The position numbers and the translations under genes were made by a program. The notes below the pieces were generated by a model. It worked only from the letters and a program-made list of their open reading frames with translations. It searched no databases and had not been told where the DNA came from. Shown one piece after another: positions 3,669 through 24,000 of a DNA stretch of 24,000 nt (the stretch's first letter is position 1; every line of letters begins with the position of its first letter). Origin of the DNA: Candidatus Providencia siddallii (lineage in GTDB: Bacteria; Pseudomonadota; Gammaproteobacteria; Enterobacterales; Enterobacteriaceae); contig NZ_OZ034688.1 of NCBI RefSeq assembly GCF_964026685.1, positions 696,442-720,441 of the forward strand, in the 5' to 3' direction.

Positions 3669-5207
3669 TTATTTTATATTAAGTTTTATAAAACTTAAAA
3701 ATCTAAAACCTAATATAAACAATGTAATAAAATAACTTATTCCACCAATAAAAATTACTAAAAATAAATAAAACATTCTTATTAACATACCTTTTTCATA
3801 TATAAAAGGTATACAATCTATCATAATAGATAAAACAGATCCCATAACAAATAAAGCTATTAATAATTTTAAAAAAAATATTTTCCATCCAAATAAAGGT
3901 TTATATATTTTTTGTTTTAATAATTGCCAATACAAAAGACCAGCATTAAAACATGCTGCTACACCTGTAGAAAGAGCAAGGCCAACATGTTGTAATTTTA
4001 TAACAAATATTAAATTCATCAATTGAGTTAAAATTAATGTAAAAATAGCTATTTTTACAGGAGTAACTGTATCCTGCCTAGAATAAAAACCAGGAGCTAA
4101 TATTTTAACTAAAATAATTCCTGTTAATCCTATACAATATGCAATTAAAGCATATTGCGTCATTAATGAATCATAAGCAGTAAAATTACTATATTGAAAT
4201 AATGATATAATTAATATTTTAGATAAAATAGCTAAACCTAATGCGCACGGCAAAGTTAATAATAAACATAAACGCAAACTCCAATCTATTAATTGATGAT
4301 ATTCAATTTTATTATTATTAATAAAACTTTTAGTTAATAAAGGTAATAAAATAGTACTAATCGCAACACCTAAAATACCTGAAGGTAATTCCATTAATCT
4401 ATCTGCATAATACATCCATGAAATTGAACCAGGTTGTAAAAATGAAGCAAATATTGTATTTATAATTAATGAAATTTGCGCAACAGATACCCCAATAATA
4501 GCTGGCCACATCATTTTTATAACCCTAAAAACACCTTGATTTTTAAATGAAAAACGTGGTAAAACTAACATACCAATTTTTTTAAGATAAGGTAATTGAT
4601 ATAAAAATTGTAATAAACCTCCAAATAATACTGACCATCCCAACGCTATAATTGGTGGATTAAAAAATGATGTTGCAAAAATAGAAAATACAATCATACA
4701 AATATTTAATAATGTTGGGGTAAAAGCTGGCACTAAAAAACGATTCCAAATATTAAGAATTGCACCAACAAGAGCACTTAACGAAATAAAAAAAATATAA
4801 GGAAATGTAATACGTAATAATTTTATTGTTAATTCATATTTATTTAAATATTTACTAATACCTGGCGCTGCAAGATAAATTATTCAAGGAGCACTAATAA
4901 ATCCAATAAAAGTTACAATTGAAAGAACTAAAGTTAACATTCCAGCAATATAAGAAATAAAAATACGAGTAGCTTCCTTTCCTTTTTTATTTTTATATTC
5001 AGTAAGTATTGGGATAAATGCTTGAGAAAAAGCCCCTTCAGCAAAAATTCTACGTAATAAATTAGGAAGTTTGAATGCTATAAAAAAAGCATCCGCTGCC
5101 TCCCCAGCACCAAATATTCTAGCAATTATAGCATCACGAATAAATCCAAAAATTCTAGACATTATCGTCATAAAACTAATTTTTGTTAATATTTTAAATA
5201 AATTCAT
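3669..5207 (-). CDS. murJ: Lipid II flippase MurJ (MviN), 512 aa if the single in-frame TGA at 4884-4886 is read as Trp
   Basis: ORF-track fragments 4884..5207 and 3669..4733 are in the same frame, and the stretch between them has no other stop. My translation across the junction is ...[68 protein letters not shown]... The E. coli MurJ sequence from memory is ...MLAAPWVIMVTAPGF...[39 protein letters not shown]. The N-terminus [35 protein letters not shown] also matches. Length is 512 aa versus 511 in E. coli. TAA stop. Confidence 0.9.
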
Positions 5208-5795
5208 AATTTATAATTCTAAAAATTAATATATCAAATAATAAATAGTTATTTATATTAAATAAATAAAACAAAATATTAAAAATAAAAAAAATATACT
5301 AAATATTTTTTTTAAAATTAATTAAATTAATTTTTAATAATTATATTTTCTTTAAAAAAAATAATTTTACATTTATTTTTTAAAACATAATTAATTATTA
5401 TATTTTATATTTTTGTAATTTTTACAATATTTTATTAATTAATAATATAATATATTTTTATTTAATTATTTAACTATTAAATTTTAATTCTTTTAAAAAA
5501 AATATTATAAATATAATACTATTAATAAAATAAAATTATTTAAATATATAAATAACTTTAATTTATACTATTTTAAAAAAATATAATATATTATCTATAA
5601 AAATTAAAACTTTTTAAAAAAATTACTACTTAAATTATAAATTTTGTTTATCTTTTTATTTTATATAATATTATTTATTTAATATTTTTATTAAATTAAT
5701 ACTTAACTCATATAACTAAATATTAATTGTATAAAAACTAAACATAATATATATTATAAAAATTAAATATATATTATATTTTACTTTAAATATAT

Positions 5796-5880
5796 GGTGA
5801 GATGTCCGAGAGGATGAAGGAGCACGTTTGGAAAATGTGTATACTAAAATGTATCGAGGGTTCAAATCCCTCTCTCACCG
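5796..5880 (+). tRNA. tRNA-Ser (anticodon GGA), type II with long variable arm; no encoded CCA
   Basis: The acceptor GGTGAGA pairs with TCTCACC and is followed by discriminator G. The anticodon stem is CACGT/ATGTG with loop TTGGAAA, giving anticodon GGA. The long variable arm is TATACTAAAATGTATC. The T arm is GAGGG-TTCAAAT-CCCTC. The downstream sequence is CAT, not CCA. Confidence 0.93.
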
Positions 5881-6192
5881 CATGAAATAAAATTAATTTT
5901 TTTAAAAATAAAAAAAACAAAAAATATTTTTATAAAAAATAAAATATTACAAATTATTATTAATAATATTCATTATATGTATATATTATAAATTATTATA
6001 TAAATATAAATAAAATAAACATAAATAATATTTTATTATAAAAAATTTTAATATATTAAATATTTCCTATTAAAATTATATTAACAATAAATATAATTTT
6101 ATAAAAAAATACTTTTTTACAAAATTATCTATTTTTATAAAACAAATATAAAAAATAATAGATTTTTAAAAATCTAAAAATAAAAATAAAAT

Positions 6193-7101
<909 letters not shown>

Positions 7102-7334: not shown

Positions 7335-8165
7335 TTATATATATTGAGCTAATGAAACTCTATCGCATTTACTATAATCAACACATGTTTTAATATTACT
7401 ATATCCATAAAACTTAAATAAATTACGTACAGACAAACCTTGCTTATAACCATGTTCAAGAATTACCCATCCATATTTTTTTAAATATTTTTTAGATTGT
7501 TTAATAATATAAGCTAAATTTGACATACCATTATCATATGCTACTAATGCAATAATAGGTTCAAATCTTAAATCACCTTTTTTTAAATGAATATCATTTA
7601 TTTTAATATAAGGCGGGTTACTAACGATCATATCAAATCGCTGATATAACAAAGAAGAAAACCAATTACTTTTTAAAAAACATACATTAAATATATTTAA
7701 TCTAAATTGATTCTTTTTCGCTAAATTAATTATTTCATAATTAATATCAACACCAATTATTAAACATTTTGGCAATTCAAAAGCAATTGATAAAGCTATA
7801 ATACCTGTCCCAGTTCCTAAATCTAATATTTTATAACGTTTATTACTTAATCTAATTAAAGCTTGTTCAACTAAACATTCAGTATCCGAACGAGGTATAA
7901 GTGTAACCGGTGACACATAAAATGATAAAGACCAAAATTCATATTCTCCAATAATATAAGCAATTGGTTCTCCCTTTTCTCTTCTTTGTAAGAATAACTC
8001 AAGAGTTTTATATTCATTTATTGTCAATTTTATTTCATTAAAAGCAAAAATATAAGCATAATTATAATTAGTTACATATTTCAAAAGAATTTCAACATCT
8101 TTTATTGCAGTATTACTAAAACTTAACCTTATTGTTGCTTGTTTTATCCAATCTATACATTTCAT
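7335..8165 (-). CDS. prmC: Release factor glutamine N5-methyltransferase PrmC (HemK)
   Basis: 276-aa ORF with the SAM-binding motif LDLGTGTGIIALS and the catalytic NPPY motif (VSNPPYIKI). It lies immediately downstream of prfA, as in E. coli. Its ATG overlaps the prfA TAA by 1 nt (TAATG at 8167-8163). TAA stop. Confidence 0.93.
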   Translation of the reverse strand: MKCIDWIKQATIRLSFSNTAIKDVEILLKYVTNYNYAYIFAFNEIKLTINEYKTLELFLQRREKGEPIAYIIGEYEFWSLSFYVSPVTLIPRSDTECLVEQALIRLSNKRYKILDLGTGTGIIALSIAFELPKCLIIGVDINYEIINLAKKNQFRLNIFNVCFLKSNWFSSLLYQRFDMIVSNPPYIKINDIHLKKGDLRFEPIIALVAYDNGMSNLAYIIKQSKKYLKKYGWVILEHGYKQGLSVRNLFKFYGYSNIKTCVDYSKCDRVSLAQYI

Positions 8166-9244
8166 TAATTTTCTAACAATTCCATTAATTTATCTGTTTG
8201 ATATTCATCAATGATAGGACTAATTAATAAATCTAATTTTCCAGACATAATCTCATTTAAAGAATATAATGTTAAATTAATACGATGATCAGTAATTCGC
8301 CCTTGATGAAAATTATACGTACGAATACGATCTGAACGCGAACCTGATCCTAATAAATTACGCCGTTCAGAATCTTTAATTAATTGTCTTTTATCTTTTT
8401 CTGCTTGATAAATACGTGCAGCTAATACAGACATAGCTTTAGATTTGTTTTTATGTTGAGAGCGTTCATCTTGACATTCAACAACAATACCACTTGGCAT
8501 ATGTGTAATACGTATCGCAGAATCTGTAGTATTAACATGTTGACCACCTGCTCCAGATGATCTAAACGTATCTATACGTAAATCAGATAAATTAATTTTT
8601 GGAGACTCTATTTCTGATAGCTCAGGTAAAATTGCCACAGTACATGTAGAAGTATGAATTCTACCTTGAGATTCAGTTTCCGGAACTCGTTGAACTCTAT
8701 GTCCACCTGATTCAAATTTTAATTTACCATAAACATTATCTCCTAAAATTTTTATTATAACTTCCTTAAAACCACCATGTTCTCCATGTTGAAAACTCAT
8801 TAATTCAATTTTCCAATTTTTGTTTTCAGCAAAACGAGTATACATACGAAATAAATCACCAGCAAAAATAGCAGCTTCAGATCCTCCTGAACAAGCTCTG
8901 ATTTCTAAAAAACAATTGTTTTCATCATTTATATCATTTGACGTTAAAAATAACTTAAGTTGTTTTTCGATATTTTTATTTTTTATTTTTAATTCTATTA
9001 ATTCTTCTTGTGCAATTGTTTTTAATTCAAAATCATTTAACATTGTTTCTACTACTTTTATGTCTTCCTGTAAACTATTCCACCTCTTAATATATCTTAT
9101 TATATTAGATATTTTAGAATACTCCATTGATAATTCACGAAAACGATATTGATCTGATATAATATTAGTATCAATAAGTTTTTTTTCAATTATATTATAT
9201 CGTTCTTGAAGCACTTTTAATTTTTCTTTTATAGAAAATTTCAT
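8165..9244 (-). CDS. prfA: Peptide chain release factor 1 (RF1, reads UAA/UAG)
   Basis: 359-aa ORF colinear with E. coli RF1. The GGQ motif is present ([21 protein letters not shown]). The RF1-type PxT recognition tripeptide occurs in [16 protein letters not shown]; E. coli has PAT. There is no RF2-type SPF motif and no RF2-style frameshift site. TAA stop. Confidence 0.96.
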
Positions 9245-12431: not shown

Positions 12432-13295
12432 TTATATTATATTAGTTATTTTAGAACGAAACTCATGTAATGATGACTTATTTATTCCTTTTACTAAAAA
12501 ACTTTTTATTCATGTTGGAAGATGATTTAATAAATTTAAAGCATCAGAACGTGTTTTAAATTCAGAAAAAATACAAGAACCTGTTCCTGTTAATCTAAAA
12601 GTTGCATATTTTAATAACCAAGAAATAAGTTTATCAATTTTATAAAAACGTTTTCTTACAATATTTTCACAATCATTTGTATAAGGATTAATTAATAACG
12701 TAGATAATTGTTGTTTTGGAGAATCTCTATCTAATAAAGGATCTAAAAAAATTTCTTTAGTTGATATTTTTATTTTATTATTAATAATTAAATACCAATT
12801 TTCTTTTAAAAAAACAGGAGTTAAAACATCACCTATTCCTTCAGCAAACGAAGACTTACCTTTTACAAAAAAAGGTATATCAGCTCCAATAGTTTTACCT
12901 AATTCTGCCAAAACATCATCAGAAACTTTTGTAGACCAATGTTCATTAAGAGCTATTAATGTTGTAGCAGCATTTGAAGAACCACCACCTAATCCTCCAC
13001 CAATTGGCAATCTTTTTTCACAACTTATATCTGCACCTAATGCCTTAGTATATTTTAAAACATTATGACAATAATTCTGTAATAATTTTGCTGCACATAA
13101 AATTATATTATTTTTTACTCCAGGTATTTTATTAAGTATATTAATTTTATTATCTAATCTAGTAGATATAGTTATTTTATCACCATAATTAAAAAAATGA
13201 ATTAAAGTTTGTAATTCATGATAACCATCTTTTCTATAGCCATTTATATATAAAAATAAATTTAATTTGCCAGGAGATGGCCATGTCAGAATCAT
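12432..13295 (-). CDS. ispE: 4-diphosphocytidyl-2-C-methyl-D-erythritol kinase, 287 aa if the in-frame TGA at 12510-12512 is read as Trp
   Basis: The GHMP-kinase motif PIGGGLGGGSSNAATTL is present. The N-terminus MILTWPSPGKLNLFLYI matches E. coli MRTQWPSPAKLNLFLYI, so I prefer the ATG at 13295 over the track's TTG at 13310. After the track's end (...LNHLPT-TGA) the same frame continues IKSFLVKGINKSSLHEFRSKITNII-TAA. This parallels the E. coli C-terminus ...PEWLNGFVAKG.NLSPLH... (from memory). Confidence 0.9.
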
Positions 13296-13921
13296 TTTTT
13301 TAATACCCAATCATCTATTTTAAATTTTATAAAATTATTACCTTGACGTAATTCAAAAACACTTGGTAAATATGGAATTTTTATAATATTATATTTTATA
13401 TAATTTATTTCTATTTGTTTATTATTTTTTTTAAATCTCATAGTTTTTAACAAATTATTTTCATTAAAAATAAAATCAATTGAACTACCAGGTAAACCTA
13501 TTAACCATAAAACAAATTCATTAAACGGTATACTTATTCCTATTAACTTAATTAACATATAATCTACATCATCACCAACGTAAACTCCTTTGTTTTTTAT
13601 ATTTAAAAATGAAAAATTATCTTCAAATTTAAATTCTATTTCAACATTACCAATTGGATTCATTAAAAATAATTGATATTTTTCAGGATAAAATTGTCGT
13701 TGAAAAAAAAATTTAGAATATATTTTATTTTTATCATTTGAATATATTAAAGACCCACGAACTTGATAATTATGCAACTTTAATAAATTTTGTTTATGAA
13801 TATCCCATTTTATATTTTTTTTATAAAAAACATTTTTATTAAAAACTGATGTACAACTTAATAGTAATAAACAAATAATTTTTAAAAAAATAAATTTATT
13901 ACTAATAATAGTAGATATCAT
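13262..13921 (-). CDS. lolB: Outer-membrane lipoprotein LolB. Homology ends at the TGA at 13292-13294 (209 aa); the coordinates shown extend to the next TAA, assuming UGA is read through
   Basis: The N-terminal signal peptide has a lipobox (LLLLSC, Cys23). The C-terminus ...KFKIDDWVLKK parallels E. coli ...KLKMDNWIVK. The gene sits directly upstream of ispE-prs, as in E. coli. Its terminal TGA overlaps the ispE ATG (ATGA). With read-through the tail is WFWHGHLLAN, which contains a second TGA, before the TAA at 13262-13264. Confidence 0.85.
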
Positions 13922-14664
13922 ATATTTTATATATTAAATATTTGATAATACATAGTTAAACATTTCATTGTTGAAATAAAATAATTTTATTTACAAAATA
14001 ATACTATTAATAAAAATAAAATACATAATTTTTATAACATAATGTAAATAATTATAAAAGTTATTATTTTATTTTCAAATAAATGTAATTATATATAAAG
14101 AATATTATGTAATCAATTAATTTAATTAATAAAAAATATTTTATCTTAAATTAAAATTAAAATTAATATTAATTTTAATTTATATATGATATACATATTA
14201 AAATACATAAAAAATTACATTTTTTTATATACTAATTTAAAAATAACGTATTAAATAATAATATATAATACAAAAATATTTTTTTTTAAAAAATTAATAA
14301 AAAAACATTAACTAATTATATTTAACTAAAATTATTTTAAAAAATTAATTTTAAAATTTCAAATAAATGTAAAAGTATGTTTTATTAACTATAAAACATT
14401 ATATTTTATATAAAAATATAAATATAATTATATTTAAAATATTAAGTTCTATAAAAAAATAAATAAATTTATCTTAAATTTATACTATATATATTATAAA
14501 AATTAATTTTTATATAAAATATTATATTTATCTTATAAAATCATATATTTATATCAAAAAATATAAAACAAATGATATTAAATTAATAAAAATATTATTA
14601 ACTTAAAAAATAAATAAATTATATTTTTATAATAAATTTAATTTTTTTATAAACATTAAATTTA

Positions 14665-16345: not shown

Positions 16346-16416
16346 AGGCGCGTCCCGGAATCGAACCGGGCTATACGGATTTGCAATCCGACACATAACC
16401 ACTCTGCTAACGCGCC
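16346..16416 (-). tRNA. tRNA-Cys (anticodon GCA); no encoded CCA
   Basis: The reverse complement is GGCGCGT TA GCAGAGTGGTTATGTGT CGGA TTGCAAA TCCG TATAG CCCGG TTCGATT CCGGG ACGCGCC T. It is near-identical in architecture to E. coli cysT. Only 2 nt separate it from tRNA-Leu. Confidence 0.93.
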
Positions 16417-17064: not shown

Positions 17065-17828
17065 ATAACTTTCAAGATATTAAATAATAATTTTCAATAG
17101 CATATTTATTTTTATATATTTTAAAATACATAAAAACAAATATACTATTGAAAATAAATATACTAATAAATAGTACACATATTATTTACTAAATAACAAA
17201 TAAAATAAAATAATTATTAATAACGAATATATTTATATTAAATATTTATAACTATAAAATCATAACCTTTTATATTTTTTTATAAATAAACTTAAATTTA
17301 TTTATTTTATAAAAAATAAAATCTTATATTTTTATAAATACATATAATAAAATTTACAAAATTATATATTTAATATACAAAACAAAATTAATTTTAAAAA
17401 AATTTTATGTAATTACTTTTTATTAAAAATCAATTGTTTTAAAATATATAAAATATTTCATATAAAAAAATATTAAATTATTTTTTAAAAAAATAATTCA
17501 TAAAATATATTAAAAAACTAATATTTTAAAAAAATAACAAATTCAATTTTATTTATAAATAAAATTGATATTTATATTATGTAATATAAACAATAATTAT
17601 TAATATATTAAAATAAATTAAATAATAAACATAAATAATATTTTATCATATAGATATATATTTTAAAAAAAAATTAAAAAATAAACAAAAATAAATACAT
17701 TAAATAGTAAATCTATTATATTTTTACTTCATATAAAATATATATAATAATAAAATTATTAAAATATTTTTATTCAATATACAATATTTAATTATTTATT
17801 TTTTAAAAAAATAATTTTTTTATTTTTT

Positions 17829-22366: not shown

Positions 22367-22906
22367 ATGAAAAAAAACAATAATTTAATTTGGATTGATC
22401 TTGAAATGACAGGTCTTCATCCAATTCGTAATCGTATTATTGAAATAGCAACTATTATAACTGACAAAAATATTAATATTTTAGCAAAAGGACCTGTTAT
22501 TCCAATTTATCAAACAGAAAAACAACTTAATTTAATGGACAAATGGAATATCACAACACATGTTACTCATGGTTTAATAGAACGTGTTAGAAAAAGTTCT
22601 TTTAACGAACGAGATGCTGAACTAATAACAATTAATTTTTTAAAACAATGGGTTAAAAAAGGAAGCTCTCCTATCTGTGGTAATACCATTGGGTTAGATA
22701 GACAATTTTTATTTAATTATATGCCTGAACTAGAAAACTTTTTTCATTATCGCTATATTGATGTTAGTACAATAAAAGAATTAGCTTTACGTTGAAAACC
22801 ATCGATTTTAAATAAATTTACTAAAAAAAATACACATCAAGCTTCAAACGATATTATAGAATCTATAAATGAATTATTATTTTATAAAAAATATTTTTTT
22901 AAATAA
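22367..22906 (+). CDS. orn: Oligoribonuclease, 179 aa if the in-frame TGA at 22793-22795 is read as Trp
   Basis: The track ORF ends ...[18 protein letters not shown]. The same frame continues [40 protein letters not shown]. coli Orn from memory reads ...[43 protein letters not shown]... The DEDDh motifs are WIDLEMTGL (Exo I) and H-x4-D ([11 protein letters not shown], Exo III); the latter lies after the TGA. Length is 179 aa versus 181 in E. coli. Confidence 0.9.
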
Positions 22907-23089: not shown

Positions 23090-24000
23090 TAATATATATC
23101 AAATATTTTATTTATTAATATAAAAATATTTATATTTTAAAAAAACAAAAATTAAAAATGTATTTTTAATTTAAATAATATCATTATATAAAATTATAAA
23201 TACATAAACATAAATATATATTATAAATATTTTATCTAATATTTTTATAAACGTAAAAATATAAAACATTTTTTAAAAAAAATAATATAAGAATATTATT
23301 AAAATCAATAAAATATTATATATTTATAATTTCTTAACAAAAAAAATTCATATTTAATTTTTAATTACATTTTATAAAAAAAATAATAAAAAACTAAATT
23401 AGTTAATAATAATTTAATTATTAATTAACAAAAATCTATTTTAACTGTTAAATATATAATAAAATAAAATCAAACTTTTATATAAATTAATAATTTATTA
23501 TAATTTAACATTCAGTATTATATGATATATTAATTTCGTTAATCAAATATTTCTAATAATTTTATTATTAATCTATTTAAAATAAATAATTTTAAATATT
23601 TTATTTTATCAATAAAAAAAATAACAAAGAAATATTTTAATTATACAAATTTTATTTAAAAAATAAAATACTAAAATTTTTAATTAACCAATTTATTATT
23701 TTTAATATAAATATTTATATATTTTATATAAACTAAAATATATCTTAGAAATATTAATATCACAATGATTATAACATTTTTTTTAAAATACATAAAAACT
23801 TTTAAAAACAATTAATAACTTTTTAGAATATTATTCTAATTAATAAACTAATTATTAAAACTAAAATATATTGTATCTTTTAAAGATATATATTTATTAT
23901 TAAAAATATATTAAATAAAAAATAACGAAATATTTTAACAAAACTATCTTAAAAATAAAAAACAAATATAATAAAAATATAAAATTACTAAAAATTTTAA

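Follow-up and report, generated by a model that had tools for sequence, protein, structure and literature searches.

The in-frame TGA at codon 143 of orn, the oligoribonuclease gene of Candidatus Providencia siddallii strain PSAC (positions 22793..22795, forward strand), is very probably a sense codon. Sequence comparison points to UGA being read as tryptophan in this strain, which would yield a full-length DEDDh oligoribonuclease of 179 residues, as part of a genome-wide, lineage-specific and incomplete reassignment. This assignment follows from the invariant Trp column into which the codon falls, from the reading frame and catalytic motif that are kept downstream of it, and from the recurrence of the same change in murJ and ispE. 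All positions are those of the window, the 24,000-nt stretch of PSAC DNA that was analysed.

PSAC has a genome of 755,758 bp and is a symbiont housed in the bacteriome of the leech Haementeria acuecueyetzin; Ca. Providencia siddallii is placed in the Morganellaceae, Enterobacterales. Three strains of the species were sequenced by Manzano-Marin, Kvist & Oceguera-Figueroa (2023, Genome Biol Evol 15:evad164; PMC10540940), PSAC being the 756-kbp strain of 22.0% GC from H. acuecueyetzin. These authors found in-frame UGA in 125 of 610 PSAC genes, mostly as UGG-to-UGA changes at Trp positions, and read this as a change from code 11 to code 4 that is specific to the lineage and probably at an intermediate stage. 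According to the same work (PMC10540940), the UGA-bearing genes include many aminoacyl-tRNA ligases, trnW has kept the anticodon CCA and acquired two unique loop mutations, prfB (RF2) is retained and itself carries an in-frame UGA, and at least nine genes, including kdsA, probably still end at a UGA stop. The orn TGA is one annotated case of this published, genome-wide reassignment and is in that sense already known; reading TGA as Trp is not particular to orn, which is one of 125 such genes. The main text of PMC10540940 mentions neither orn nor murJ nor lolB by name. What we add to it is small: the base following the TGA (the +4 base) is split between A and T, and lolB may be a further gene, unlisted there, that has kept its UGA stop.

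The orn gene on either side of its TGA

Under table 11, orn is an ORF of 142 aa (22367..22795) that begins with the ATG at 22367 and has Arg142 as its last residue. The TGA stands in the context cgt TGA aaa, with A as the +4 base, and beyond it the same frame runs through 36 further open codons to the true stop, a TAA at 22904..22906. With TGA translated as Trp, the full CDS (22367..22906, forward strand) encodes 179 aa, and the peptide across the TGA-encoded Trp is ELALRWKPSILNK. The preliminary description of this DNA had given the coordinates, the sequences and both lengths correctly. Runs of at least 36 codons free of TAA and TAG account for ~3% of the off-frame runs in the window, and ~5% are expected from base composition. 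Taken together with the homology described below, the open frame after the TGA is therefore not a product of chance.

With NF003765, the oligoribonuclease equivalog of NCBIfam (curated cutoff, 106 bits), the read-through product reaches 263.1 bits and covers profile positions 3-180 of 189. The profile comparison that had been suggested for the table-4 translation of 22367..22906 thus returns a full-length oligoribonuclease. The 142-aa truncation also exceeds the cutoff, with 207.8 bits, and the C-terminal 36 residues after the TGA add 55 bits to the score. Residues 4-179 align without gaps to E. coli Orn (PDB 1yta/7vh4; E = 3e-79), and the TGA coincides with W143 of the E. coli protein, within the segment ELARRWKPE in which a conserved Trp had been proposed. 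In an alignment of the PSAC protein with 119 homologues, this column is W in 120 of 120 sequences and hence in all Enterobacterales retrieved.

The Exo III motif of the DEDDh family, H-x4-D, lies 3′ of the TGA (22835..22852, forward strand), as the preliminary description had indicated. His157 is encoded by cat at 22835-22837 and Asp162 by gat at 22850-22852, and both columns are invariant across the 120 aligned sequences. In the read-through protein the DEDDh set is complete, with D11, E13, D111, H157 and D162 matching the E. coli residues. H157 and D162 enter the protein solely through read-through of the TGA; a chain that stopped there would be short of two of the five catalytic residues, which bears out the earlier expectation for a truncated Orn. 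Measured against the E. coli enzyme (PDB 1yta/2igi), PSAC Orn shows ~65% identity over its full length, equal length and all of the catalytic residues; it departs from the family in having its Trp143 encoded by TGA and in the substitution of conserved C-terminal residues.

Public annotation already places W at the TGA: the GenBank entry CAL1329524.1 (179 aa, 'Oligoribonuclease [Candidatus Providencia siddallii]') corresponds to the read-through product, and RefSeq WP_341765308.1 (180 aa) is the same protein with one additional N-terminal Met. An exact-sequence look-up of the 142-aa truncation found no record in the protein collection. The closest non-self matches to Orn in the protein search come from free-living Providencia, at 69% identity. 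A scan of GTDB-representative contigs with exact 8-residue Orn peptides returned no P. siddallii strain, PSAC included, and yielded only free-living gammaproteobacteria and MAGs with at most 64% identity. A protein search with LolB, a fast-evolving query chosen to favour sister symbionts, returned PSAC's own protein alone, and on this account the sister strains PSOF and PSLP appear to be missing from the collection. Among the homologues that could be reached, neither stops nor indels follow the Trp codon.

UGA in the other genes of the window

The window is AT-rich (~10-29% GC per kb) and holds 16 genes: partial aspS, argS, murJ, kdsA, prmC, prfA, ychF, pth, prs, ispE, lolB, a fabV-like gene, pgsA, an mscK-like gene, psd and orn. 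Annotation with table 11 truncates or splits around one-fifth of all PSAC genes and, in line with this published 20%, breaks three of the 16 here, namely orn, murJ and ispE. In murJ (3669-5207, reverse strand) the in-frame TGA is codon 108 (4884..4886, context cct TGA ata) and falls on a conserved Trp, aligning with the W of AAPWIIYITAPG in MurJ 7waw in a match that extends over residues 1-507 (E = 1e-217). In ispE (12432-13295, reverse strand) it is codon 262 (12510..12512, context aca TGA ata), again at a conserved Trp; it aligns with the W of APEWLNGFVAKG in IspE 8qc7, and the same span, 4-280, is matched in E. coli IspE 1oj4. In all three of these unrelated genes, the internal TGA thus occupies a conserved Trp column.

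TGA is still a rare Trp codon. The window genes contain 65 TGG and three TGA codons for Trp, so that TGA makes up 4% (3/68); the underlying codon-usage tally counted five TGAs, two of them terminal. For the codon pairs of Lys, Glu, Gln, Leu(TTR) and Arg(AGR) in the same genes, the A-ending share is 90-95%. A value of 4% against 90-95% elsewhere places TGA far from mutational equilibrium. Such a low share would be expected of a reassignment that is recent or still carries a cost, in agreement with the published 'intermediate stage'.

The two terminal TGAs are found in kdsA and lolB, both on the reverse strand. The kdsA TGA (6220..6222, TGA-ttt, +4 base T) closes a CDS of 284 aa (6220-7074), the length of E. 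coli KdsA, and the alignment spans residues 1-282 of both proteins. With UGA as a stop, KdsA terminates in KIDINN; under code 4, eight codons past the TGA would be translated up to a TAA at 6193-6195, adding nine residues (WFLYLFFLF). The public records of KdsA disagree, with 284 aa in GenBank, ending at the TGA, and 293 aa in RefSeq, where the TGA is W.

The lolB TGA (13292..13294, TGA-ttc, +4 base T) closes a CDS of 209 aa (13292-13921). Homology to E. coli LolB, in which DNWIVK is matched by DDWVLK, ends one residue before it. If UGA stops translation the C-terminus is WVLKK, and if UGA is read through it is KKWFWHGHLLAN; code 4 adds ten residues (WFWHGHLLAN), and the public annotation has 219 aa. 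The list of nine genes that keep a UGA stop in PMC10540940 does not include lolB. Its TGA overlaps the ispE ATG (13293-13295) as ATGA. A change from TGA to TAA would destroy this ATG, which explains the retention of the TGA whether or not it still terminates translation.

Under code 4, UGA is no longer a terminator; in kdsA and lolB, TGA stands exactly where the homologues end. On the basis of these two codons and of the at least nine genes with UGA stops argued for in PMC10540940, the PSAC code is at best an incomplete code 4. The TGAs at stop positions, together with the 3/68 share among Trp codons, suggest that decoding of UGA may be inefficient or ambiguous. The window reproduces the published reassignment in the following respects: TGG-to-TGA changes at conserved Trp positions, ~20% of genes affected and the UGA stop of kdsA.

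Alternative readings of the orn TGA

The bases that follow the five TGAs differ between the two classes. A follows all three sense TGAs (orn TGA-aaa, murJ TGA-ata, ispE TGA-ata), and T follows both TGAs at stop positions (kdsA TGA-ttt, lolB TGA-ttc). After TGG, the next base is A in 21 of 60 cases (~35%), which gives p ~0.04 for three out of three at the sense TGAs; the pattern covers five codons and was recognized post hoc. This difference is absent from PMC10540940, which discusses +4 context for prfB only, and we regard it as a lead, not a result. It raises the possibility of a dual, context-dependent UGA, by which tRNA-Trp(CCA) would insert Trp at UGA-A and residual RF2 would end translation at UGA-U; Orn would then be made at full length, possibly at reduced yield. 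Besides the distribution of A and T, such a mechanism would accord with E. coli work in which a 3′ A favours read-through of UGA by tRNA-Trp (Engelberg-Kulka 1981; Kopelowitz et al. 1992, both as cited in PMC10540940), and with the retained UGA stops argued for in that paper. However, T after stop codons is common in AT-rich DNA, and the overlap with the ispE ATG accounts for the lolB TGA regardless of stop function. We view dual decoding as a tentative proposal with less than an even chance of being right. If true, it would be a bacterial case of context-dependent dual decoding in the midst of a code change, a matter for which the main text of PMC10540940 holds no genome-wide analysis; the +4 pattern opens a cheap genome-wide test.

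Considerably less probable is that orn has recently become a pseudogene, such that translation ends at the TGA, the 142-aa product is inactive and the cell manages without Orn. Some reduced genomes do without this enzyme. UGA apparently still terminates kdsA and lolB, and RF2 is reported to be retained (PMC10540940), both of which would be compatible with termination in orn. Substitutions also point in this direction to some extent: departures from columns with at least 90% conservation amount to 8 of 23 after the TGA versus 11 of 93 before it (Fisher p = 0.023), identity to P. heimbachae Orn declines from 70% before the TGA to 58% after it, and the changes at highly conserved sites in the distal part (22796-22903) include L160S, D161N, R164I and A168N. 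From the protein alignment, constraint on the C-terminal part of Orn could be somewhat relaxed. Yet this excess of substitutions is mild, and the 36 codons contain neither stops nor indels; they have remained open in sequence of 15% GC, for which the chance is the ~3-5% given above. Both catalytic residues, His157 and Asp162, have been kept. Moreover, murJ and ispE carry a like change from Trp to TGA, and the 125 UGA-bearing genes reported across the genome (PMC10540940), many aminoacyl-tRNA ligases among them, cannot all be pseudogenes.

Selenocysteine, or an error of sequencing or assembly in place of TGG, has next to no probability as an explanation of the orn TGA. UGA is the Sec codon in bacteria, and nothing more speaks for selenocysteine. 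It was rejected because the aligned column is Trp and never Cys or Sec, and because no SECIS-like hairpin is present 3′ of the UGA: the minimum free energy over the 70 nt from the orn UGA is 0 kcal/mol, and 200 of 200 shuffled sequences fold at least as well. Error was ruled out by the recurrence in murJ, ispE and 125 genes of a finished genome, which is not a random-error pattern. A programmed frameshift was likewise rejected, as the reading frame is unchanged across the orn TGA.

UGA decoding in PSAC and the remaining features of the window

For UGA read as Trp in PSAC, we envisage a sequence of events in which AT pressure would generate TGG-to-TGA mutations that become tolerated at Trp codons. 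tRNA-Trp(CCA) may read UGA through a C-A wobble pair and would do so in competition with weakened or depleted RF2. The efficiency of this decoding may stay below 100%, which may lower the yield of Orn, and an A in the +4 position may help. Leaky read-through of UGA by wild-type tRNA-Trp(CCA) in E. coli offers a parallel, in that PSAC shares the CCA anticodon and the sense TGAs of the window are followed by A. In E. coli, however, read-through occurs as an error, at a low level, at true stop codons, whereas in PSAC essential genes depend on UGA being decoded, which would call for a much higher efficiency or for a weakened RF2.

Established users of code 4, that is Mycoplasma/Spiroplasma, Hodgkinia, Zinderia, Nasuia and Stammera, resemble PSAC in reading UGA as Trp and in having AT-biased or reduced genomes (PMC10540940). 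These lineages have lost prfB and contain sense UGA in 50-70% of their genes (PMC10540940). PSAC, in contrast, is reported to retain prfB, has TGA for ~4% of the Trp codons of the window and carries TGA at ancestral stop positions. No other bacterium has been reported in what appears to be an intermediate phase of turning a stop codon into a sense codon, with RF2 and tRNA-Trp(CCA) both retained; the case was made in 2023, and the orn codon contributes one more, already annotated, example. The joint retention of RF2 and tRNA-Trp(CCA) makes PSAC a natural case on which the ambiguous-intermediate and codon-capture models of code evolution can be tested.

Neither prfB nor trnW lies within the 24,000-nt window. 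prfA, which encodes RF1, the factor that reads UAA and UAG, is intact and free of in-frame TGA (8165..9244, reverse strand; exact match to CAL1329514.1, 'peptide chain release factor 1'). Directly downstream of it, the gene call places an intact prmC (7335-8165, reverse strand).

The tRNAs of the window are Ser(GGA), Leu(TAA), Cys(GCA) and Gly(GCC). Of these, tRNA-Cys(GCA) (16346-16416, reverse strand) alone is near-cognate to UGA; the aligned columns, being Trp and not Cys, give no indication that it reads the TGAs. tRNA-Ser(GGA) (5796-5881, forward strand) was called by ARAGORN, and the Rfam tRNA model is silent there at the gathering threshold. Four stretches of ~10-14% GC (23100-24000, 17065-17828, 13922-14664 and 5208-5795), with no ORF of at least 50 aa and no Rfam match, are unusually long non-coding regions for a symbiont genome of 756 kb.
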